A DNA stretch of 12,595 bases, taken from Promethearchaeota archaeon. GTDB lineage: Archaea > Asgardarchaeota > Thorarchaeia > Thorarchaeales > Thorarchaeaceae. Shown here one piece after another: positions 1 through 12,595 of the stretch. Under the pieces are notes generated by a model. That model made no database searches and was not told the origin of the DNA. It worked only from the letters and a program-made list of their open reading frames with translations. The stretch is from the NCBI GenBank assembly GCA_027031765.1, contig JALVPN010000126.1, positions 1 to 12,595 on the forward strand. The letters run 5' to 3'. Within the stretch, counting starts at the first letter, position 1, and each line of letters opens with the position of its first letter. A program made the position numbers and the translations under genes.

Positions 1-303
1 GCCCTGACCCTGAGCCTGTCCAGTGTGCGCACTCTCCTGAAATACCAGTCAGTGGCCGGACCGGTGTTTCCAGTTGCGCCACCGACTTATGTCCATTGTC
101 ATGGTGTGTCCGGCCTGAGCGCACTGGTCAACTGCACGCAGAAAGGCGCCATCACACCATCTTTGCCCCACCGATAGAGTGGGACGGGCCGACCGGATGG
201 TCCACTGGGGCCGGGCGCTGCGAGTCCTCCACCTGCTCCACAAGTAGGGCCCCCGTGTCGACCAGTCTGACTGCGTGGCCCCTGTCCCGCCCGCTCTTGC
301 GGA

Positions 304-327
304 TACTTATCTGAGAAGCAATATCTA
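304..327 (+). promoter_or_regulatory. Possible archaeal TATA-like element(s) upstream of the first membrane-protein gene
   Basis: Only AT-rich patch near the gene (TACTTATC 304-311; AATATCTA 320-327 preceded by purine-rich GAGAAGC) in GC-rich flanks. Weak match to consensus. Confidence 0.3.
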
Positions 328-380
328 CTAGCGCTGCGCATGGGCCTAGACTAGGAGAACCGGACTGGTGGGCCTCTATC

Positions 381-1664
381 TTGGCTGTCTTGACTGAGCA
401 ACAGTGTGAGCTGACGACTGGAGAGCGGAACCTCGGGTACCTGCTCTCCTGCATGGGAGTGGTCGACGGTATCCAGGGCAACATGCCCGTCTGGGCTGCT
501 CTGCGTCTCACGACAAGGCGGGCTGCCGGGTTCGTGACAATAATGCTCGTACCACTCATCACGTACCACTATGTCTTTGTGAATTCATTCGGTGGACTCA
601 TCGTCACAGTTGGTGGTGGCATCCTGCTCGTGGTCTGCGCGGCCATAGTGACACGGGCAGTGTACGGTGTGTTCTGTCGGGTGTGTTCACACTTTGCATA
701 TGACGGCCCCGACTCGCCACTGGCCAGTCTCTATGTCCGTGCGGAGGACGCCCAGAAGTTCAGCAGACTGGCAATGCACAAGCTCTTCTACTGTCGCTTT
801 CATGACGTCGGCTCGCTGGTCTGTGGAGTCCTGGTCTATGCCCTGGTCACAGGCTCAAGCGTTGTGAGCCACTATATGGACACTGGTGACGTAGTCTTCT
901 CTCTCTTCGAGTGGGGTAACACATTTGTCTTCCCCTGGACCATTCCCGTCAAGGTCTGCAACTGGGTCCTATACGGTGCCGTAGTGGTCATCATCATATC
1001 CCTCCTCCGGACCATCCGCAGGTGTGTCGTCGTTGTGGATGCCTTCAACGAGGAACAGCACACACTGGTCCTGTTCCAGCTCGTTGAAGAGCTGAACGAG
1101 GTGCGCGTGCTGCGGGGCGCCAGGAACCTCACCGCAGAGGACGAGTTGAAGGAGTACCTGTTCAGGCGCAGTCACTTCACCGAGTTCTACGAGTTCGCGC
1201 GCGGCGTTGTCGACTCAATGATACGGATCACGGCAATCATCTTCGTTTCCGGTATCCTGATGAGTCTCGTAAATGTGGCAATAAGACTGACAGAGGGCTT
1301 TTCCCAGCTCCGGTTCTACATGGGCCTCGTCGTGGTGGGCTGCGGCCTCCTACTTGGTCTATACGTGTTCGTCCACCCGCAGCTCAGGATGCACGCGTTG
1401 ATGGAGGCATACAAGTCGTCAATGGTCAACCTCCTCCAGGATGTCTTCGAGCTCCAGATACACAGGTTCATGGTGTCGGAGAAGAGCATACGCCGTGAGG
1501 TAGCCACTGACATCAGGCTCCTCGACGAAATCCTTGAGTACAACAAGCAGCTACGCGTATGGCCCTACACACCGCAGCACCTGATACAGGTTGCGAGTCT
1601 CGCCACACTGGTCATGCAGTCCGGCCTGTTCGATGCGTTGCAGGCGGCGATGATAGGGGGATAG
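381..1664 (+). CDS. Uncharacterised polytopic membrane protein (~7 TM, N-in), 7TMIC/chemoreceptor-like candidate, copy A; start uncertain
   Basis: 427-aa ORF with GC3-rich codons. Hydrophobic segments: GFVTIMLVPLITYHYVFV, FGGLIVTVGGGILLVVCAAIV, VGSLVCGVLVYALVTGSSVV, WVLYGAVVVIIISLL, MIRITAIIFVSGILMSLVNVAI, FYMGLVVVGCGLLLGLYVFV and a weaker LIQVASLATLVMQ. C-terminal HPQLRMHALMEAYK...LRVWPY (W at 1560-1562). The frame is open from 315; TTG at 381 is the first start codon. CDS is secure, family is inference. Confidence 0.85.
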   Translation: MAVLTEQQCELTTGERNLGYLLSCMGVVDGIQGNMPVWAALRLTTRRAAGFVTIMLVPLITYHYVFVNSFGGLIVTVGGGILLVVCAAIVTRAVYGVFCRVCSHFAYDGPDSPLASLYVRAEDAQKFSRLAMHKLFYCRFHDVGSLVCGVLVYALVTGSSVVSHYMDTGDVVFSLFEWGNTFVFPWTIPVKVCNWVLYGAVVVIIISLLRTIRRCVVVVDAFNEEQHTLVLFQLVEELNEVRVLRGARNLTAEDELKEYLFRRSHFTEFYEFARGVVDSMIRITAIIFVSGILMSLVNVAIRLTEGFSQLRFYMGLVVVGCGLLLGLYVFVHPQLRMHALMEAYKSSMVNLLQDVFELQIHRFMVSEKSIRREVATDIRLLDEILEYNKQLRVWPYTPQHLIQVASLATLVMQSGLFDALQAAMIGG

Positions 1665-1667
1665 GAC

Positions 1668-1865
1668 ATGATGGACGTAATGAACGGCCCGTGTCATTGG
1701 GCGTGGCCCCCAGAGTCCTCCGAGCTGGGTCTTCCAACCCTGGCCGGGCCGTCTGCATGTGGCCCGCCCTCACGCAGATGTGTGTCCTGTGGTGCTGTAC
1801 TCCAGTCGTATCCGGAGGTGGTGGGCCCATTGACTAGACTCAACGTAGTGCTGAGAGGTGTATGA
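1668..1865 (+). CDS. Possible 65-aa small hypothetical protein bridging the two membrane-protein genes
   Basis: ATG 3 nt after the upstream stop; TGA ends 1 nt before the next ATG (1867). Pro/Gly/Cys-rich with no recognisable domain, so it may be spurious. Confidence 0.2.
   Translation: MMDVMNGPCHWAWPPESSELGLPTLAGPSACGPPSRRCVSCGAVLQSYPEVVGPLTRLNVVLRGV
1855..1860 (+). promoter_or_regulatory. Shine-Dalgarno-like GAGGTG
   Basis: GAGGTG 6 nt upstream of ATG 1867; favours 1867 over GTG 1858 as the start. Confidence 0.6.
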
Positions 1866-1866
1866 G

Positions 1867-3153
1867 ATGAGCGACTCTGACCAGCCGGACTGTGAGGCTG
1901 ACGTCCCCGGGTCACGTCTGGGCCATGTTGACCCGGTCTACTATGATGAGGACGGCCGTCTACGACTGAGGCAGGGACAGGAACATAGGGTGTCCCTGTT
2001 CATCCGTTGGGGCATAGGGTACGACTCCCTCGTCAGTGTAGTGATATTCTACGGCTTCATCGGATGGCAATGGCCCATATACCTGCTTGCGGGCTATGAG
2101 ATTCAACTGACCACTGTCATGGTTACGCTGCTACTTGTGGTCATAATCTCGCTGGCCACAGTCATCCTCCGCGAGTTCTATAGGGACCTTGCTGCCCTTC
2201 TGGACGTACAGGGTGCTGGGACGGGGAGGACGCGTGCTCAGATACGAGAGCTCTTTGTCAGTGACGGCCAGTACAGACAGTTCCGTCAGACCATCTACGA
2301 CGACATGTTCACCCGGAACTGGGCTGACCTGGTCGGTGTTGTCGTGGCCACAGTGGGACTCTCACTCCTGATCGGGGCCGACATGGTCTACTATCAACAG
2401 ACAGTAGGGGACTGGAGGGCTGTGCTGGTGTACGTGTTCAGGAACAAGCCCCCTGCACCGCCGCTGGCTGCCGCCATACGCTGGACCCAGCCGTTTGCAG
2501 TGTTCCTCCTCTATGTCTTCGTGATTTCATTCTGCCTGCGACTGACACTGATGACGTGGCACTTTCTCAGGCTGCGTACGGTCGCGGACAAGGTGTCAAT
2601 CAGTATTCCCATGCCATGTGTTGACAGCCACATGCGTGACTGTGCTACCTTGGGCTACATGCGCTTCCTGCGGACCGGGCGGGCTGTGTTCAGGGTCTTC
2701 CTGAGGGTTGCGACCCTGATGTTCCTGTGCGTATTCGTGGTGGCCTTCTGGGAGTTCTTCGTCATGACCTTCATGAACCCCAAGGACATCGTCATCGAGG
2801 TCGACCTCACCCTGATAGTCTTGGCCGCCATCGTCTGTGTTGTTGCCTGTACCCTGATTGTCGCCCCGCTACTGGGTTTCAAGGCGATTCTCTCTGACGC
2901 CAAGTGCCGCCTCGTCAACCGGATCAGGGACCTGTTTGAGAAGACGCAGGCAATCTACCTCCTGTACGACCTCCCACTGTCACAGACCCGCGACCTGCTG
3001 GACGAGACGCAGGTCTACCGTGCCGTCCTGCTCTACTCGGAGGGCCTGCCAGTGTGGCCTGTCGAAATACCAGACCTTGCACGTTTCGTCCTGATAGGTG
3101 TGGGCACTGCGTTGCTCTCGATATTCGGCCACCTGTTCCGGTTTGTCCAGTGA
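1867..3153 (+). CDS. Uncharacterised polytopic membrane protein (7 TM, N-in), 7TMIC/chemoreceptor-like candidate, copy B; paralog of 381-1664
   Basis: 428 aa from ATG 1867. Seven hydrophobic segments: LVSVVIFYGFIGWQWPIYLL, LTTVMVTLLLVVIISLATVIL, LVGVVVATVGLSLLIG, FAVFLLYVFVISFCLRLTLM, VATLMFLCVFVVAFWEFFVM, LTLIVLAAIVCVVACTLIVAP, FVLIGVGTALLSIF. C-terminal APLLGFKAILSDAK...LPVWPV (W at 3055-3057) parallels copy A. Confidence 0.88.
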   Translation: MSDSDQPDCEADVPGSRLGHVDPVYYDEDGRLRLRQGQEHRVSLFIRWGIGYDSLVSVVIFYGFIGWQWPIYLLAGYEIQLTTVMVTLLLVVIISLATVILREFYRDLAALLDVQGAGTGRTRAQIRELFVSDGQYRQFRQTIYDDMFTRNWADLVGVVVATVGLSLLIGADMVYYQQTVGDWRAVLVYVFRNKPPAPPLAAAIRWTQPFAVFLLYVFVISFCLRLTLMTWHFLRLRTVADKVSISIPMPCVDSHMRDCATLGYMRFLRTGRAVFRVFLRVATLMFLCVFVVAFWEFFVMTFMNPKDIVIEVDLTLIVLAAIVCVVACTLIVAPLLGFKAILSDAKCRLVNRIRDLFEKTQAIYLLYDLPLSQTRDLLDETQVYRAVLLYSEGLPVWPVEIPDLARFVLIGVGTALLSIFGHLFRFVQ

Positions 3154-3377: not shown

Positions 3378-5288
3378 ATGAACAGTGCAAGGCGAGCTCT
3401 GGCGTTGATACTGGTCACACTCGTGCTGGCTGGAGCCATTGCCCCCATGGCACAGCCGACAGTGCCCACGAGCAGTACCCTCTGCGTGCACGGCCCCCCA
3501 AAGGTGTCCGAGACCACCCTTGTCGTCACCAATACGACCTTCAACTACCACCAGGAGTTCAACGACGATGACTTCAGGTTCGTCGTCAGGAACGGTTCGG
3601 AGCCGGTCAGCGGAGCACTGGTCACACTCTACAATGCGACCGGGGACGTGGCATACCAACACACAACGCAGAGTGACGGCTCATGGGCGTTCTACAACGT
3701 GAGACCGGGCGTCTACACTTGGAACGTGACCTGGGACGAGGCGCCAGAGGCGTTTGTCACTGGCACCCTTGTCTCTGATGGTCCCGAGGCCTTCGCAGAC
3801 GTCGAGCTCGGCAACTTGGACTGGGGAAACGATGATGACGACCTTAACGCGACAGTTGTTGACATCGTTGGTGCCGCAGCTTCCGGACTTAACTTCTCCA
3901 TCCACTTCCGAGACAACAATACCATCTGGGACCAGCAGATCATTGACGACGAGGGCCATGTCAGCTTTGTGGATGTCCCCGAGGGCAACTACACATGGAA
4001 GGTCACCGTGCTGTCACGCGTCGAGAACCCGTACAATGGGACTGTCATCGCATCCGGCAACTTCACGAGCGACGGCACCGAGGTCCTGGTACGTACGTGG
4101 CTGTCGTCCTTCCTCGCTGGCAGTCCCGAGTACTATGACTTCGAGGTCTACACATACTACGAGCAGAGCCTCTCGCCACTTGAGGGGGCGGTGGTGAACG
4201 CCACCTATGCGAATGGCACCGTAATCGGGACGGAGACCACGCCGGCCAATGGTTCGGTCACAATCGTGGACCTACCGGTGGCACCGGTCAACATCTCCAT
4301 CACATATCAGGGCCGCTACCTTGGTGCCGGTAACTACACCTTCAACCTCACGGCTCTCGCCTATGATGAACGGCTGCCCGTCGTTCACGGGCCCGGCAAC
4401 AAGGTCTTCCTGTACGGGTCCTCCAACATGCATCTGACATGGGAGCTCTATGACGAGTATCCCGAAAAGTTCGAGGTGTATATTGACGGCAGCCTTGAGT
4501 CCACAGTGGACTGGGTGAACCAGTCGTACACCTACACACTTGACTTCCCGCGTACAGGGCTCGGCAACTACACGGTCACACTCACGGCGTACGACCAGAA
4601 CCAGAACATGGCCACTGTCACTTCTTGGGTCTGGATACATGAGACCACGGCCCCAGTGGTCGAGGGGCCTGGACCTGTTGAGTTCTATTACACCGAGACC
4701 GGGTACATGCTCCAGTGGAACGTGTCAGACGACCACCTCAACATGTTCACTCTGACCCGCAATGGGACTGTTGTGCGGAGCGGCACTGTCGACCCCGACA
4801 ACCCGTCCATCATGACCTCACTTGATGGGCTGCCCATTGGTCTACACATCTACAGGCTGACAGTGAATGATACGAGTGGCAACACGGCATACGACGAGGT
4901 GCGTGTTACAGTAAAGCGTGACGACGTCGCCCCCGTCTTCGTGTACGAGCCCGGTACTGTCTACTACAACTACGGTGACGTCAACATTGTGCGCAACTGG
5001 ACAGTACGCGATGACTTCATGCTCTCGTACGAGATATTGGTCGATGGGGTGCTGGTGGAGAGTGGTAGCTGGGACTCCGAGACAATCGAGTTCGACTTTG
5101 CAGGGCTGGCAGAGGGGGTCCACTACGTCAACCTGACAGTGACGGATCTCGGTGGCAACAATGCCTCCTCCAGTGTCATGGTGGTCGTGGGAGCACCACT
5201 CTACGTCACCGCAGGGCTCTACATCGGCTCGCTCGTTGGGGCGGTGGTGGTCATTGCAGCCCTTGTCTGGTACGCACGGTACAGGTAG
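3378..5288 (+). CDS. Secreted, C-terminally membrane-anchored surface glycoprotein: 3 CarboxypepD_reg/CnaB-like beta domains + 3 Ig-like repeats
   Basis: Signal peptide MNSARRALALILVTLVLAGAIAPMA. Three ~90-aa units of the type V.GA.V.LYNATG...T...DG...F..V..G.Y.W.VT. Three 92-aa repeats starting at 4365, 4641 and 4917 (D/E..P....P....Y......W...D......I..NG/DG......W......GL..G.Y..TLT..D..GN). C-terminal TM LYIGSLVGAVVVIAALVWY followed by ARYR. 24 N-x-S/T sequons by hand count. Confidence 0.9.
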   Translation: MNSARRALALILVTLVLAGAIAPMAQPTVPTSSTLCVHGPPKVSETTLVVTNTTFNYHQEFNDDDFRFVVRNGSEPVSGALVTLYNATGDVAYQHTTQSDGSWAFYNVRPGVYTWNVTWDEAPEAFVTGTLVSDGPEAFADVELGNLDWGNDDDDLNATVVDIVGAAASGLNFSIHFRDNNTIWDQQIIDDEGHVSFVDVPEGNYTWKVTVLSRVENPYNGTVIASGNFTSDGTEVLVRTWLSSFLAGSPEYYDFEVYTYYEQSLSPLEGAVVNATYANGTVIGTETTPANGSVTIVDLPVAPVNISITYQGRYLGAGNYTFNLTALAYDERLPVVHGPGNKVFLYGSSNMHLTWELYDEYPEKFEVYIDGSLESTVDWVNQSYTYTLDFPRTGLGNYTVTLTAYDQNQNMATVTSWVWIHETTAPVVEGPGPVEFYYTETGYMLQWNVSDDHLNMFTLTRNGTVVRSGTVDPDNPSIMTSLDGLPIGLHIYRLTVNDTSGNTAYDEVRVTVKRDDVAPVFVYEPGTVYYNYGDVNIVRNWTVRDDFMLSYEILVDGVLVESGSWDSETIEFDFAGLAEGVHYVNLTVTDLGGNNASSSVMVVVGAPLYVTAGLYIGSLVGAVVVIAALVWYARYR

Positions 5289-5380: not shown

Positions 5381-6691
5381 ATGCGGATGAGCAGTGACGG
5401 TTTCGTCCACGTCAGTGATGTGCTGCGTGGCTCGCTTGAGGGTGAGCGTGTTCGGCTCCGCGGATGGGTGCACAGGATACGCAAGCAGAAGAAGATGGTC
5501 TTCGTCCTGCTGCGTGACCCCTCGGGTGTCGTCCAGACTGTCATCAAGCGAGGTGTTGTGAGTGACGAGGAGTACTCGGCTGCCACGAAGATGCTGGTCG
5601 AGTCGCTTGTGGCACTTGAGGGCACTGTCAAGGCGGACGCCCGTGCAGTGGGCGGGTACGAGGTGCAGGTCGACCACCTGGATGTACTCCACTTTGCAGA
5701 GGAGTTCCCAATCACCGAGAACCAGAGCGTGGAGTTCCTGAACGACAACCGGCACCTCTGGATCCGTTCCCGCAAGATGACCAACGTGCTGAAGGTGCGC
5801 GACGAGGTCTTCCGGGCGGCCCGTGAATACCTGCGGCAGAACGGCTTCTACGAGACCACCTCTCCCATGTTCGTGTCTACGATGGGTGAAGAAGGGGCCG
5901 AGCTCTTTGAGGTCGACTACTTCGGCCGGAAGGTGTTCCTCACACAGACCGGTCAGATGCACCTCGAGCCACAGCTCTTCGCACTGGAGAGGGTGTTCAC
6001 ACTCGCACCGTCATTCCGTGGCGAGAAGTCCAGGACGCGCAAGCACCTGACGGAGTTCTGGCACCTTGAAGTGGAGGAGGCGTGGTGTGACCACGATGCC
6101 AACATAAGGCGGCAGGAGGAGCTCATCACCCACATGTGTCACTCCGTGGTCAAGAACCGTGCGGCCGAACTCGACGAGCTGGGGGTCGACCCCGAGCGGC
6201 TGCTGAGGATAGGGCCACCATTTGACCGTATGACCTACGAAGACGCCATTGAGGAGTGCCAGCGTAGGGGTCTTGACATCGAGTGGGGTCAGGACATCCG
6301 TACAGAGGCAGAGCACGTACTGACACAGGACAGGGACACGTTCCTCATAGTCGAGTTCTACCCCAAGGAGATCAAGAGCTTCTACATGAAGCACAACGAT
6401 GCTGACCCACGGACCTATAAGAACAACGACATGCTCGCCCCGCAGGGCTATGGGGAGGTAATCGGTGGCAGCCAGCGCGAGGATGACGCTCAGCGCCTGA
6501 TTGAGAACCTGCTGCGGATAGGTGACGACCCCGAGAAATACAGGTGGTACATCGACCTGCGACGGTACGGCAGTGTCGAACACTCTGGGTTCGGTGTTGG
6601 CGTCGACCGACTGATCACGTGGATGCTCGGCCTTGAGCACATCCGTGAGTGCGTGCCTTTCCCACGGACCGTCAGCCGCATCTACCCCTAG
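5381..6691 (+). CDS. asnS: Asparagine--tRNA ligase (class IIb)
   Basis: OB-fold N-terminus VRLRGWVHRIR...F..LRD.SG; motif 2 FRGEKSRTRKHLTEFWHLEVE; DMLAPQGYGEVIGGSQRE; motif 3 WYIDLRRYGSVEHSGFGVGVDRL; C-terminal FPRT..RIYP. The DLRRYG and HLTEFWHLE segments are AsnRS-type rather than AspRS-type and resemble Thermococcales AsnRS as I recall it. Confidence 0.95.
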   Translation: MRMSSDGFVHVSDVLRGSLEGERVRLRGWVHRIRKQKKMVFVLLRDPSGVVQTVIKRGVVSDEEYSAATKMLVESLVALEGTVKADARAVGGYEVQVDHLDVLHFAEEFPITENQSVEFLNDNRHLWIRSRKMTNVLKVRDEVFRAAREYLRQNGFYETTSPMFVSTMGEEGAELFEVDYFGRKVFLTQTGQMHLEPQLFALERVFTLAPSFRGEKSRTRKHLTEFWHLEVEEAWCDHDANIRRQEELITHMCHSVVKNRAAELDELGVDPERLLRIGPPFDRMTYEDAIEECQRRGLDIEWGQDIRTEAEHVLTQDRDTFLIVEFYPKEIKSFYMKHNDADPRTYKNNDMLAPQGYGEVIGGSQREDDAQRLIENLLRIGDDPEKYRWYIDLRRYGSVEHSGFGVGVDRLITWMLGLEHIRECVPFPRTVSRIYP

Positions 6692-6703
6692 CCTACCCCT
6701 AGC
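6682..6703. repeat. Perfect 11-bp tandem duplication CTACCCCTAGC x2 spanning both convergent stop codons
   Basis: Copies at 6682-6692 and 6693-6703; the asnS TAG (6689-6691) lies in copy 1 and the kinase's minus-strand TAG (6699-6701) in copy 2. Confidence 0.9.
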
Positions 6704-8117
6704 TGTTCTGTCGGATGACGTTCTTCGGACACGCATGTAGCGCCACACAGTCGTCATCAGGGGCTGCAGGTAGCCAGATGTCGACCCGTGTCCCCTCTAT
6801 ATGGTCGTCGGACGTACGGTTCTTGATGTCGATGCGGCCATGGTACTTCCTGACCAGTTTCATGACCAGCTGGAGTCCGACGCCGCCATAGCGGCGGTCA
6901 GGGCTGACAAGCGCACTCTTCACATACTCTGGTATACCGCTACCATTGTCCTCGATGGTGACGGTATACCCCCCGGCCTGTTCTCTCAGGGTGACCCACA
7001 CCCGCTTCGAGCCACTCGTGTTGTGGGTGAGAGCATTCTCAAGGACATTGTACAGCATGTATCGGAGGTGCTTGTCGGCGACCACTTCCGCCCTCCCAAC
7101 TCTGATGTCCATGTCTGTGATGACGTCTTGAGAGACCTCACTCACCATCTTCACGGCCTCCCTGATGCACTCCACGAGGTTCTGCCTGTACATTGGTGCG
7201 GTCATGAGGTCCCTTGTGGCCTGTGTCTTTGTTATTATTGACTCTGCACCCTCGACGGCCATCTCTATCATGCCCAGTGCGTAGGCCTCCTCTATCTTGT
7301 TGTCCGCATGTCTTATCAACTCGGTTGCAGAGACAACAGTCTGTAGCTTGTTGCGCAGGTCATGCCCGAGGATGTCGAGATAGAGGTACGCTATGTCGAG
7401 GAGCCCCTTCAACTCCTCTAGTTCCTGTATGCTCACCACCGGCTGGAGGAGGACGACTGCAAGTGCAGGCCGGCCACCGTACCTGACCCGCCGGACGTGC
7501 GCAGCCACCTGCACGTAGGACTCCGGCCCAGTCGCAATGCGCACCGCAGTGAACGCGGACTGCCCAAGCTTTGCTCCCGACCCGGACAGCTGCTGCTCAA
7601 GACGCTCGACATCCGCCGGGTGCAATAGGGGTGTTTCTGCGGCTCCAGCGTAGGCCTCCAGTGGGTTCAACTCCCTGATGAAACTGACGAGCGCCACATC
7701 CTCGAAGACGGATTTGCCGTCCTGTATGACCGACACCCCTAGGCACGTGCGTGACCTGTCGCCGCCACCCGGCCTGCTGCCGCAGAGTGCAAGCATCACG
7801 GGGTCAACAGTCAGCAGTAGCGATGGTCTGCCCTTGGAAACAACCGTGGTAAGCTGCATGCAGATACACAGCTCACCTGTCGTTACAAACAGACTGTCAG
7901 AAGCGTCGCTCTGCCCAAGGAGTCTCGTGATGCATGCCTGCAGGTCGGGCAGGTGGGTGCTGTCGAGCCCGAGTTCACCGAGTCCCCAGCCAGAGGTACG
8001 GTTGCCATCGAGACCGAACAGTTTGACGAACGCTGCATTGGCAGTGACAATGGTATCCTCTTCAAGAATGGCGGCTGGCTCCCATAGTGCATGTACGGCC
8101 TCACTGCTGAACTCCAT
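6699..8117 (-). CDS. Cytoplasmic sensor histidine kinase HK1 (two degenerate PAS domains + HisKA + HATPase_c)
   Basis: H-box LDILGHDLRNKLQ (His at 7362-7364), N-box NVLENALTHN, G1 IEDNGSGIP, G2 GGVGLQLV, end GTRVDIWLP. PAS-like DTIVTANAAFVKLFG and GVSVIQDGKSVF...LHPADVERL. No TM segment. ATG 8117 is chosen for the GAGGTG 9 nt upstream (472 aa); ATG 8144 and TTG 8177 are alternatives. Confidence 0.92.
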   Translation of the reverse strand: MEFSSEAVHALWEPAAILEEDTIVTANAAFVKLFGLDGNRTSGWGLGELGLDSTHLPDLQACITRLLGQSDASDSLFVTTGELCICMQLTTVVSKGRPSLLLTVDPVMLALCGSRPGGGDRSRTCLGVSVIQDGKSVFEDVALVSFIRELNPLEAYAGAAETPLLHPADVERLEQQLSGSGAKLGQSAFTAVRIATGPESYVQVAAHVRRVRYGGRPALAVVLLQPVVSIQELEELKGLLDIAYLYLDILGHDLRNKLQTVVSATELIRHADNKIEEAYALGMIEMAVEGAESIITKTQATRDLMTAPMYRQNLVECIREAVKMVSEVSQDVITDMDIRVGRAEVVADKHLRYMLYNVLENALTHNTSGSKRVWVTLREQAGGYTVTIEDNGSGIPEYVKSALVSPDRRYGGVGLQLVMKLVRKYHGRIDIKNRTSDDHIEGTRVDIWLPAAPDDDCVALHACPKNVIRQNS

Positions 8118-8427
8118 TAATGGAACCACCTCAGCCTGCTGCATATGATACTGTGTGCGTGGCTCACACCACTGCAATCACTGCTATCGCTGCCTGTGCA
8201 CTCCCAACAGCCTGTTCGTACGTGTGGGCAGAGGACGGGAAATGCATCCGGGGATGACGTGCCGAGTTTCGGCCCAGACAGTTGCGGCGTACAGCACTGT
8301 CCTTGTCCTGTACTCATGCCCTGCGGCATTATGAGAACCCAACATAGGCTATTATGTGTTTCTGAGGCGAGGTCTGTTGTGACCCCCATGATGATGCACG
8401 GAGTCGAAGCGTGGTGCCTGCTCAATG

Positions 8428-9103: not shown

Positions 9104-9576
9104 CTCTGGTGGTGCGGTTGGCTACCGTCCTGCGATGTCCCAACAAGGGTACCGTGCTTTGCCAGTGCAGGGGCCGCTCAACGACTCTTCCTCACGTCGG
9201 GAGGTGTCACGGCTCCAGATGTGGTCCTGCCGTGTCGACTAGCCTGCTGCAACCCGGTCTACTCCTCTGACCGGCCCCGTTGAAGCCCACTCATCCGCGT
9301 ACAGCCGTGAGGGTCGCAGTATAGGCCCACTGAACCGCACCGCAGTGACCGGTAGCAGGCCTCTCTCCAGTAGCGTCCTGCTGCTCATCCCGAGCGTCGC
9401 AGGGATATCCGGCGGTGGGACATGCGGTCACAGTCCGGTCACACTAGGGGTCACTCCCTGTCCTCCTGCCGTCATGACAGTGTGGTTGTCTGGCGCTACT
9501 AGGTGTGCCAGCTGCGTGGTCTGCACCCAGCCTGTTGTCACGAGGAGATGGCCGTGCCGTACTGCGTAGGACTCGA

Positions 9577-9602
9577 CTGTCCTGTGCTGTCCTGTGCTGT
9601 CC
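9577..9602 (+). repeat. Tandem 10-mer CTGTCCTGTG x2.6
   Basis: CTGTCCTGTG CTGTCCTGTG CTGTCC, about 110-135 nt upstream of HK2 ATG 9712. Confidence 0.85.
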
Positions 9603-9711
9603 AACAGCGCGGTCGCCACAGGATGCGTTTTGCTGCCGACTTGCTGATGCCGTGCCACAACGCCCATATAGTGGTGCCACGATTTCGTGTAGACCGTCCT
9701 ACCCGCATTCG

Positions 9712-10791
9712 ATGACTGGTGATGGCACATTGAGCCCGCCTGGGAGTAGCGACCTGCCCGAGAGCATCAGGAGCACAATGCACCTGATGATCTACCTGAA
9801 CAACGTGATCCGACTGTTCTCACGCATAGACAAGCCACTCCATGAGGTCCTGATGACGTTCGTACACATGGTACCCGAGGGCTGGCAGTACCCCGAGGTG
9901 ACCCGTGTGCGCCTCACCCTCGACATCGGGGTGTATCAGACTGCGAACTTTGAGGCCGGTCCGTGGACTCTCTCGCATCCCATCTACGTGGCTGACGAGG
10001 AGGTCGGCAAGATTGAGGTCTCCTATATTGAGGAGCGGCCCGAGGCTGACCATGGCCCCTTCCTGCACGGAGAGGTGATCCTCATCAAGACCCTGGCCAC
10101 TGAGCTCGGACACTTCCTTGAGAGGTGGGAGCTCCTGAGTCAGCGAGAGCAGCACCGGAGAGACCTCGAACTGTACACGAGCATCCTGCGACATGACCTT
10201 GCCAACGACCTGTCAGTGCTCATGACCAATACCGAGCTGATCGGGATGCTCGTACCGGAAGAGTTCACGGATGTCCACGAACGGGTCAGGTCAACACTTG
10301 CGGTCTGCGAGCGCGTGGCCGACCTCCTGAACCTGCTCAGTACTGCTCCGGCGGAGCCCGAAACCCTCCTCATGGGTGTCATTGAACGGGCCGTAGAACG
10401 TGCCCGGGCCGCATGGCCGGAGCTGAATATCCATGTCAAGGTCACACCCGGTGCCAAGTCCGCCCGCGTGCTGCCGTCCAGGCTACTCGGTACCGTTATT
10501 GACAACCTCCTGCGGAACGTGACACAGCACGTGGGTGAGTCAGCAGAGGTCACAATCTCTGTGGATGTGGAGGACGGCAAGATTGTGGCCCTCGTGTCTG
10601 ACAACGGGCCTGGCATTGACCCGGCCGTGAAGCCACACTTGTTCGAACGGGGCACTTCAACACAGGGAGGAGGCCTTGGACTATACCTGTGCAGACAGAT
10701 TGTCAGGGCTGTGGGCGGTGAGATTGTCCTTGTCGAGTCTGGCGGACATAGCGGTGCCACCTTCAGGATTGAGCTCCCTATCACGACATGA
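9712..10791 (+). CDS. Cytoplasmic sensor histidine kinase HK2 (GAF-like input + HisKA + HATPase_c)
   Basis: Input domain with VPEGWQYPEVTRVRL...G.IEVSY.EERP..DHGPFL..E..LI..LA..LG. H-box SILRHDLAND (His at 10192-10194), N-box DNLLRNVTQH, G1 SDNGPGI, F-box LFERG, G2 GGGLGLYLC, end GATFRIELP. Start ATG 9712 (359 aa) or 9778. The GTG 9505 extension looks non-coding. Confidence 0.92.
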   Translation: MTGDGTLSPPGSSDLPESIRSTMHLMIYLNNVIRLFSRIDKPLHEVLMTFVHMVPEGWQYPEVTRVRLTLDIGVYQTANFEAGPWTLSHPIYVADEEVGKIEVSYIEERPEADHGPFLHGEVILIKTLATELGHFLERWELLSQREQHRRDLELYTSILRHDLANDLSVLMTNTELIGMLVPEEFTDVHERVRSTLAVCERVADLLNLLSTAPAEPETLLMGVIERAVERARAAWPELNIHVKVTPGAKSARVLPSRLLGTVIDNLLRNVTQHVGESAEVTISVDVEDGKIVALVSDNGPGIDPAVKPHLFERGTSTQGGGLGLYLCRQIVRAVGGEIVLVESGGHSGATFRIELPITT

Positions 10792-11108: not shown

Positions 11109-11208
11109 CACAGCTGTATCCGGGACATGCTGTGTCTGACAACACAGTACACATGCAGCTCAATCCTCCTTACTGGAGTCCTGCTGCACAGTGGTCGGGA
11201 GTACCCAT

Positions 11209-12595
11209 ATGCAGGATGATTCCGACCTGCACACAGGTGGGCGTTCTCTGATGATAGATGGTACCTGTCATTTCCTCAATGCGGCTGACAGCCTTGTCCT
11301 CGCCTTGGACCGAAAGGGAAAGGTCACCTTTGCAAACAAGCGTCTCTGCGAACTGCTGTCGATTGACCCTGACAGCCTGCTAGGTGCTGACTGGTTCAGC
11401 GGTTTTGTAGCGCCGGACACGCGTGACCCACTGAGGAGTGTCTATACATCAATGATACGCCGCAAGGACACGGGCCTCCGTTTCTGTCAGTGTGGTGTGG
11501 TGACGGGAGGCGGCCAGATGACCAACATAGTGTGGCACCTGGTGAGACTGCGCAGGTCGTCGGGCAGTGTCGCAGGATGTCTGATGCTCGGCACGGAGAT
11601 GACGGCCCACCGGCAAGAGGCCACGATGTTCACATACGGCATTGACTTCTTCACCCACCTAGCGTCGGTCATTCCGGCTGGCATCCTCGTTGCCGACCTT
11701 GAGGGGCGCGTCCTGTTCGCCAATCAGATGATGGCAGACATCTTGGGTGTGGAAGTGACGAAGCTGCTCGGGCGCAGCTTCCTCGACTTCGTGGGCCCTG
11801 AAGAACGGGGGCTTGTGTGCAGCGAAACTGCACGGCCCATGCATGGGGGGACAACGACGTATGATATTCCACTCGTCACACCCTCGGGTCAGAGGCGCAC
11901 TGTACGACTGAGTGTCGGCCCTCTGTTCGAAGGGGAGTCCCCGGTCGCCACCGTCGCAACAGCCCTCGATGTGACCGAACAGAAAGAGGCAGAGGCACGA
12001 CTGGAACGCGAACGGGAGCTCTTCGCTGCCGTCCTTGAGTCGAGCCTCGACGCGGTCATCGCCACCGACCATGAGGGCCTCATTGTCCTGTGGAACCGTG
12101 CTGCAGAAGAGATGTTCGGCTACTCGCGTTCGGAGGTGCTGGGCCGTCCACTCATAGACGTCGTGATCCCACAATACGCCCGCGCGGCCTTTGTGAAAGA
12201 CATGCGGGTCCTCACGGAACGTGGCGCAGGGCCGTCGGCTTGGGCCCGCCGTGTTGGCCGGGCACAGAGGAAGGACGGCCGTGGTTTCATAGTGGAGGTC
12301 TCAGTCGCCCCATACAGGACTGGTGGGCGGTGGGGTGCAGCCTGCTCCGTGCGTGATGTAACGCAGCGTCGTAGGATGGAGATGCTTGAGCGTCAGCGTG
12401 TGGAAGAGCTTGAGATATACTCGTCAATCCTGAGGCACGACATGAAGAACGACATTGGTGTTGTGCTCGCGAACGCGGAGCTGCTTGAGATGCTCGTCGA
12501 GTCGGACGACCCTGACGTGAGGGCTGCAATCTCTTCGATAGTCGCAGTGTGTGAACGGATGACGCGTCTCCTCACGACGTTCACCCGTCCTGCCG
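11209..12595 (+). CDS. Multi-PAS sensor histidine kinase HK3 (3 PAS + HisKA), truncated by the window edge; not in the ORF track
   Basis: I translated 462 stop-free codons from ATG 11209 (alternative ATG 11251). PAS1 LVLALDRKGKVTFANKRLCELL...LGADWF; PAS2 GILVADLEGRVLFANQMMADILG...LGRSFLDFV...DVTEQKEAE; PAS3 DAVIATDHEGLIVLWNRAAEEMFGYSRSEVLG...RKDG...RDVTQRR; H-box SSILRHDMKND (His at 12436-12438). Confidence 0.95.
   Translation, partial: MQDDSDLHTGGRSLMIDGTCHFLNAADSLVLALDRKGKVTFANKRLCELLSIDPDSLLGADWFSGFVAPDTRDPLRSVYTSMIRRKDTGLRFCQCGVVTGGGQMTNIVWHLVRLRRSSGSVAGCLMLGTEMTAHRQEATMFTYGIDFFTHLASVIPAGILVADLEGRVLFANQMMADILGVEVTKLLGRSFLDFVGPEERGLVCSETARPMHGGTTTYDIPLVTPSGQRRTVRLSVGPLFEGESPVATVATALDVTEQKEAEARLERERELFAAVLESSLDAVIATDHEGLIVLWNRAAEEMFGYSRSEVLGRPLIDVVIPQYARAAFVKDMRVLTERGAGPSAWARRVGRAQRKDGRGFIVEVSVAPYRTGGRWGAACSVRDVTQRRRMEMLERQRVEELEIYSSILRHDMKNDIGVVLANAELLEMLVESDDPDVRAAISSIVAVCERMTRLLTTFTRPA

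Follow-up and report, generated by a model that had tools for sequence, protein, structure and literature searches.

Two tandem paralogues with a predicted insect receptor-like (7TMIC) fold in a Thorarchaeota genome

A 12,595-bp contig from a Thorarchaeota metagenome-assembled genome (MAG; 2.95 Mb, 95% complete) was analysed whole and is referred to here as the window. It carries two adjacent genes, A and B, whose products are probably old, diverged paralogues of an unannotated family within the 7TMIC superfamily. This superfamily comprises the insect odorant receptors (Or) and gustatory receptors (Gr), Arch7TMIC/Bac7TMIC, plant DUF3537, PHTF and GRL/GrlHz. Insect smell and taste receptors were long regarded as an animal invention, but since 2023 their superfamily reaches into archaea and bacteria. 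The sequence finding is incremental since archaeal 7TMICs have already been published (Himmel, Moi and Benton 2023, bioRxiv 10.1101/2023.08.30.555482); it brings one more Asgard lineage into that class, together with information on gene order. The locus is nevertheless a compact and tractable case, with two confidently modelled Thorarchaeota subunits of ~430 aa, one canonical and one degenerate, that form a natural pair for comparison. Its defined signature, PQxxxH...K on transmembrane helix 6 (TM6) with a T-W-P hinge ahead of the presumed pore helix, gives a clean Asgard test case.

An earlier sequence-only reading of the window described two adjacent, co-oriented genes of 427 and 428 aa in a probable Asgard archaeon, and both descriptions hold (Table 1). 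Unnamed proteins on record are identical to A and to the 428-aa form of B that begins with ATG (an alternative GTG start at 1858 would give 431 aa). The host is more precisely placed in Thorarchaeota since the Asn/Asp-type aminoacyl-tRNA synthetase adjoining A and B (AsnRS), which served as the taxonomic marker, is 73-80% identical to orthologues in many Candidatus Thorarchaeota MAGs. The only public sequencing run containing the window DNA is a hydrothermal-vent metagenome DNA run, possibly its source, and no RNA run is listed as containing it. The two proteins are also, as was proposed, collinear paralogues of low identity. BLASTP detects their relationship in the final ~97 residues alone (E 1e-5 at 25% identity), and they are collinear in the family alignments, including the motifs quoted in that reading.

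AlphaFold2 models made with an 80-sequence family alignment are confident (pLDDT 87.2 and pTM 0.86 for A, pLDDT 85.2 and pTM 0.85 for B). Their secondary structure, with helix limits taken from DSSP, consists of seven long membrane-length helices, the last preceded by a further helix, TM7a. Kyte-Doolittle hydropathy agrees with the models on about seven TM helices, detecting six of the seven in A and in B and all seven in most relatives. Hydrophobicity is weak in TM7b of A and in TM1 of B. The N-in/C-out orientation proposed from K/R-rich loops is upheld by the family means of lysine plus arginine (K+R). These are 5.7 for the N-terminus, 8.8 for the TM2-3 loop, 8.7 for the TM4-5 loop and 10.2 for the TM6-7 loop, against 0.6, 1.2 and 0.7 for the TM1-2, TM3-4 and TM5-6 loops and 0.2 for the C-tail. 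The summed values of 33.4 inside and 2.7 outside are strongly asymmetric and thus support a predicted N-in/C-out topology under the positive-inside rule. The mean loop lengths in the family are 11, 27 and 11 aa on the outside (with a tail of 4 aa) and 54, 55 and 75 aa on the inside, and the extracellular loops are therefore shorter than the intracellular ones, as in other 7TMICs. The loop pattern read from the sequence matches this except at the TM3-4 loop, which is moderate (~27-34 aa) rather than long. Additionally, the predicted TM4, TM5 and TM6 of A and B are long and run into the cytoplasm, and TM7 is split into a cytoplasmic TM7a and a membrane TM7b at a break that carries the conserved T-W-P, both of which characterize 7TMICs. 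The succession of TM6, soluble helix, second helix, W-P break and final TM helix that was read from the sequence is present in both models. End-to-end structural alignments suggest that TM4 to TM6 pack into an anchor bundle.

A Foldseek comparison of the A model with the PDB returned insect receptors as hits 1 to 17 (Gr43a, BmGr9, AgamOR28, OR5-Orco, Orco, Gr64a and AaegOR10). These alignments are full length (~405 columns, probability 0.91-1.00), with weak E-values (1.4e-3 to 4.5e-2) and low TM-scores (0.26-0.45). For the A and B models alike, insect Gr, Or and Orco structures are the only full-length structural matches, and the alignments reach the C-terminus of Gr43a, Orco and MhOR5. Placed by predicted fold alone, the family has a good likelihood of belonging to the 7TMIC superfamily, as the inverted seven-helix Or/Gr-like architecture recognized from the sequence had implied. 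The resemblance might instead be convergent or architectural only, the family serving, for instance, as a transporter, a structural membrane protein or a membrane sensor with a signalling bundle of cytoplasmic helices rather than as a channel. This is unlikely because the structural match is specific and spans the proteins from end to end in collinear order; an exhaustive structure search found no G-protein-coupled receptor, rhodopsin, AdipoR or permease fold among the full-length matches. The inverted topology also comes together with the unusual splitting of TM7 and with the characteristic loops, and Himmel, Moi and Benton argued for homology of prokaryotic 7TMICs with Or/Gr proteins by the same criteria. 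A and B would thus be a new member, and possibly a new Thorarchaeota-containing subfamily, of the published class.

Word-indexed homology searches with A and B matched nothing except A and B themselves. Relatives surfaced when 300 genomes from the same phylum were searched in six frames and when a profile was used, and the family was found across the sampled genomes of the host phylum. A profile built from eight sequences and run exhaustively over 1.84 billion representatives had 641 matches at E<=1e-3; of these, 131 reach E<=1e-10 and 23 reach E<=1e-30. Lengths of 380-430 aa predominate, some matches have N-terminal extensions, and every named member is labelled 'hypothetical protein'. None of the 80 aligned members has a convincing Pfam match even at E<=10, and there are zero matches to 7tm_6, 7tm_7, Trehalose_recp, DUF3537 and Phtf at that threshold. 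A search of NCBIfam with the family was blank, the family profile matched no chain among the PDB sequences, and feature and fold searches of the ESM Atlas with A and B gave unnamed clusters only, in one of which (455 aa) the commonest labelled taxon is Candidatus Heimdallarchaeota; another cluster bears a 20% 'RcgA' label.

The family signature, as measured by column conservation in the 80-sequence alignment, has five parts (A numbering): L117-F118; P185; F269; F330-x-x-P333-Q334-x-x-x-H338...K345; and T393-W394-P395. Conservation peaks in TM5, TM6 and the last helix. L117 (78%) and F118 (94%) precede the cytoplasmic helix of the TM2-3 loop, in which F127 is conserved at 54%. The most conserved block (F330 86%, P333 88%, Q334 85%, H338 69%, K345 89%) lies in the long TM6 helix (H309-365), just past the hydrophobic segment 313-332. 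Directly before the last helix stands the hinge (T393 71%, W394 82%, P395 51%). The sequence-only reading tentatively put forward a W-P hinge as a mark of the prokaryotic class. Members of this family do share such a conserved hinge, but the 2023 preprint, whose text does not contain the word 'motif', gave no confirmation that it is a hallmark of that class. The last helix is the top element by mean information content. A faint echo of the Gr TYxxxxxQF motif that was suggested for this helix of A finds no support in the alignment, in which there is no conserved T/Y or QF and only the K403 and L404 columns are at least 45% conserved.

Several family members are longer. P0016 (568 aa), P0013 (505 aa) and P0020-P0022 carry cytoplasmic N-terminal extensions of 100-200 residues, and one extended member has a CPYC...CINCG zinc-ribbon-like motif together with acidic/K-rich repeats. 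The sequences suggest that these extensions are regulatory or interaction modules added to a 7TMIC core. The phylum-wide profile search also revealed a second, more distant group of ~340-390 aa in many genomes. Its similarity to the profile is confined to the C-terminal third (positions ~240-392, with E from 1e-7 to 1e-13), and it may be another 7TMIC-like subfamily.

Himmel, Moi and Benton reported thousands of 7TMICs in archaea and bacteria and modelled Or-like tetramers for 83 of 85 cases. Most of their prokaryotic members have a short TM4 and TM5, Heimdallarchaeota proteins with eukaryote-like long ones are also included, and sequence links among 7TMIC families emerge only after iterated PSI-BLAST. 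Their preprint (bioRxiv 10.1101/2023.08.30.555482) is without functional data, does not discuss gene arrangement and contains neither 'Thor' nor 'Loki' in its text; in the literature since 2023 no paper characterizing a prokaryotic 7TMIC was found. A and B differ from most published Arch7TMIC/Bac7TMIC proteins in that TM4 and TM5 are helices of 38-46 residues and in the extra helices of the TM4-5 loop of A. That preprint likewise describes neither the family's conserved tandem arrays of two or three genes nor its PQxxxH / T-W-P signature. Compared with insect Gr43a and BmGr9 (PDB 8jm9, 8x82, 8vc2, 8uvu), A and B have 10-13% identity, a root-mean-square deviation of 5.6-6 A and no detectable sequence homology, and the family lacks both the TM7 motif of insect Gr proteins (TYhhhhhQF) and a 7tm_7 match. 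Sugar gating and the tetramer are features of insect Gr proteins, whereas the archaeal proteins are known here from sequence and models. Plant DUF3537, PHTF and GRL/GrlHz share the structurally defined superfamily and likewise have no demonstrated channel function. The archaeal family differs from DUF3537 and PHTF in lacking the corresponding Pfam matches and from PHTF in lacking the long PHTF-type IL1 insertion.

The predicted subunit crosses the membrane seven times from an N-terminus in the cytoplasm; its outer loops are short, and TM4 to TM6 continue into the cytoplasm as long helices. At the T-W-P hinge the last helix is predicted to divide into TM7a, which is cytoplasmic, and TM7b, which spans the membrane. 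By analogy with the solved insect receptors, four subunits may associate through an anchor bundle formed by the cytoplasmic parts of TM4-6 and TM7a, and TM7b, the helix that lines the pore of those receptors, may likewise surround a central cation pore that opens on binding of a small ligand. Outer loops of this length leave no room for a separate ligand-binding domain, which would place the ligand site within the TM bundle. Gating could be passed through the conserved P-Q...H...K segment of TM6 and the T-W-P hinge. Channel function is thus plausible for A and B on the insect analogy. The two genes would most likely differ in receptor or channel specificity or supply different types of subunit, and would have been kept from a time before the host separated from a sister genus. 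A has the canonical TM6 motif; in B, two of that motif's most conserved positions have been lost.

When 400 genomes of the host phylum were searched with a profile, 98 had matches, and strong full-length matches lie at ~36 loci. An hmmsearch on the +-6-kb flanks shows tandem arrays in six genomes: G000 (A then B), G063 (B-like then A-like with an 11-bp gap, the B-like gene being split by the contig end), G021 (two copies, one frameshifted), G108 (two copies) and G268 and G289 (three copies each). In a maximum-likelihood tree A groups with the A-like gene of G063 (100/99) and B with its B-like gene (100/97), and the triplets of G268 and G289 pair copy by copy with their order conserved. This indicates that the arrays are old and retained rather than recent duplications, and from these sequences the A/B duplication appears to predate the split of two Thorarchaeota genera, the host and its sister genus. 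The three paralogues of G268 (C39, 24-3866) and of G289 (C738, 1-3580), genomes that belong to another family of the same phylum (f29 in the genome search), are tightly packed; an in-frame stop was recorded in two G268 copies by the genome search. Array genes in relatives are mostly tightly packed, whereas A and B are separated by ~200 bp of spacer, in which no recognisable signal was found by eye. A locus search with the A + G063 pair yielded no confirmed locus.

The sequence-only reading proposed that A and B could form a heteromer reminiscent of Or/Orco. In that form the proposal lacks support, although the age of the pair and its retention in tandem leave it some standing; its strict version is a channel that is obligately heteromeric, with A as the canonical and B as the degenerate subunit. 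Both copies have stayed adjacent since before the two genera split, the gap of only 11 bp in G063 suggests co-transcription, and the triplets of other Asgard genomes keep the same order, copy for copy. Additionally, A, its G063 orthologue and most solitary homologues keep PQxxxH, whereas B (APLLGFK) and its G063 orthologue (VPASSFH) have both lost Q334, and the extra copies in other arrays have similarly degenerate motifs. This asymmetry is compatible with specialised subunits and equally with relaxed or altered selection after duplication. A prediction of the A+B complex (full length, with alignments) scored 0.25 against a mark of 0.32 and speaks neither for nor against binding. Against the proposal, adjacent pairs are not the rule across genomes: ~30 of the ~36 strong loci are solitary, at least 18 of them with ~2 kb or more on both sides and still no second copy, which indicates that family members can usually do without a partner. 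Insect Or/Orco heteromers (PDB 6c70, 8z9a, 8v3c, 7lic) contain a conserved co-receptor for which the archaeal family has no equivalent. Between the host and G063 the A orthologues are 28% and the B orthologues ~26% identical while AsnRS is 76% identical, and thus the family evolves fast, with both clades diverging equally fast and neither conserved like Orco. The Or/Orco analogy is weak on both counts. Insect Or and Gr genes also form tandem arrays without co-assembling, and tandem position alone is therefore weak evidence. An obligate A/B heteromer of the Or/Orco kind accordingly has a slim chance of being correct, and the same slight odds attach to the wider proposal that the pair and the ordered Asgard three-gene arrays encode heteromeric 7TMIC subunits, one with PQxxxH and one without. 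If true, Or/Orco-like specialisation of subunits would already have been present in Asgard archaea before eukaryotes.

That one or both genes are non-functional, as chance open reading frames (ORFs) in GC-rich DNA or decaying pseudogenes, is essentially refuted: recognition scores in the protein-language atlas are low (1972 and 1755 against a mark of 2300) and some relatives decay (the G005 remnant has stops and the B-like copy of G021 is frameshifted), but A and B are complete ORFs that align collinearly with hundreds of homologues, are modelled at pLDDT 85-87 and have intact orthologues in another genus. The G005 remnant (C57, ~4500-5100, minus strand), from a Thorarchaeota relative, covers residues ~220-415 at the C-terminus of an A-like gene in three frames with TGA stops and, judged from its sequence, is a decaying copy. 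B-like remnants beside it were left uncounted as weak and non-collinear. The upstream copy of the G021 pair (C43, 4922-6177, minus strand) lies in two frames (323 + 113 aa) and reflects either a frameshift or an assembly error.

Table 1. Features of the window (nucleotide positions) and predicted helices of A and B (residue numbers)
Feature	Position	Strand	Description
Gene A	381..1664	+	TTG start, 427 aa; 7-TM protein, predicted Or/Gr-like (7TMIC) fold; canonical TM6 motif kept
Cytoplasmic TM2-TM3 loop helix	729..788	+	A residues 117-136; LF...(D/E)Y..F block conserved
Most conserved family block, F.PQ...H......K	1368..1415	+	A residues 330-345, FVHPQLRMHALMEAYK
Non-helical TM7a/TM7b hinge	1548..1571	+	A residues 390-397, QLRVWPYT; conserved T-W-P
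Last helix, corresponds to TM7b	1572..1655	+	A residues 398-425, predicted helix H398-425
A-B intergenic spacer	1665..1866		~200 bp, GC-rich
Gene B	1867..3153	+	ATG start, 428-aa paralogue; same predicted fold; degenerate TM6 motif APLLGFK
Predicted surface protein	3378-5288	+	636 aa; Pfam matches down to E 2e-11
Class-II Asn/Asp-type aminoacyl-tRNA synthetase	5381-6691	+	tRNA-synt_2 and OB anticodon-binding domain
Soluble histidine kinase	6699-8177	-	HATPase_c
Soluble histidine kinase	9505-10791	+	HATPase_c
Soluble histidine kinase	11191-12594	+	HATPase_c; runs off contig
TM1	A 46-67; B 57-68 and 72-78		Broken helix in B
TM2	A 70-105; B 80-114		
TM2-3 loop helix	A 121-136; B 136-152		
TM3	A 143-168; B 155-183		
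TM4	A 187-224; B 202-245		
Helices in TM4-5 loop			Two in A, none in B
TM5	A 264-303; B 260-305		
TM6	A 309-365; B 317-369		57 residues in A, 53 in B
TM7a	A 368-389; B 374-395		
Break	A 390-397; B 396-403		QLRVWPYT in A, GLPVWPVE in B
TM7b	A 398-425; B 404-430		

The first 380 bp of the contig look non-coding, and an ORF at 3-314 was rejected as a third paralogue, being a P/R/S-rich read-through that itself looks non-coding. Scans of the window for tRNAs and Rfam families were empty. Across 39 compared loci no neighbour family is common to the family members beyond generic ABC ATPases (five loci), and thus the histidine kinases and the Ig-like surface protein are unsupported as partners of A and B. 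A 'sensory neighbourhood' joining them to the pair was set aside for want of comparative support across these loci. The three kinases have HATPase_c and PAS domains and a weak HisKA, with no TM segments seen, and no response regulator is in view beside them within the window. In other genomes the surface protein is not found linked with 7TMIC genes. A hydrophobic, signal-like segment stands at its N-terminus and a TM anchor at its C-terminus; the protein also contains several Ig-like, CarboxypepD_reg, SpaA and PKD-like domains and is very rich in N-x-S/T sequons. From its sequence it looks like a glycosylated archaeal cell-surface or adhesin protein.

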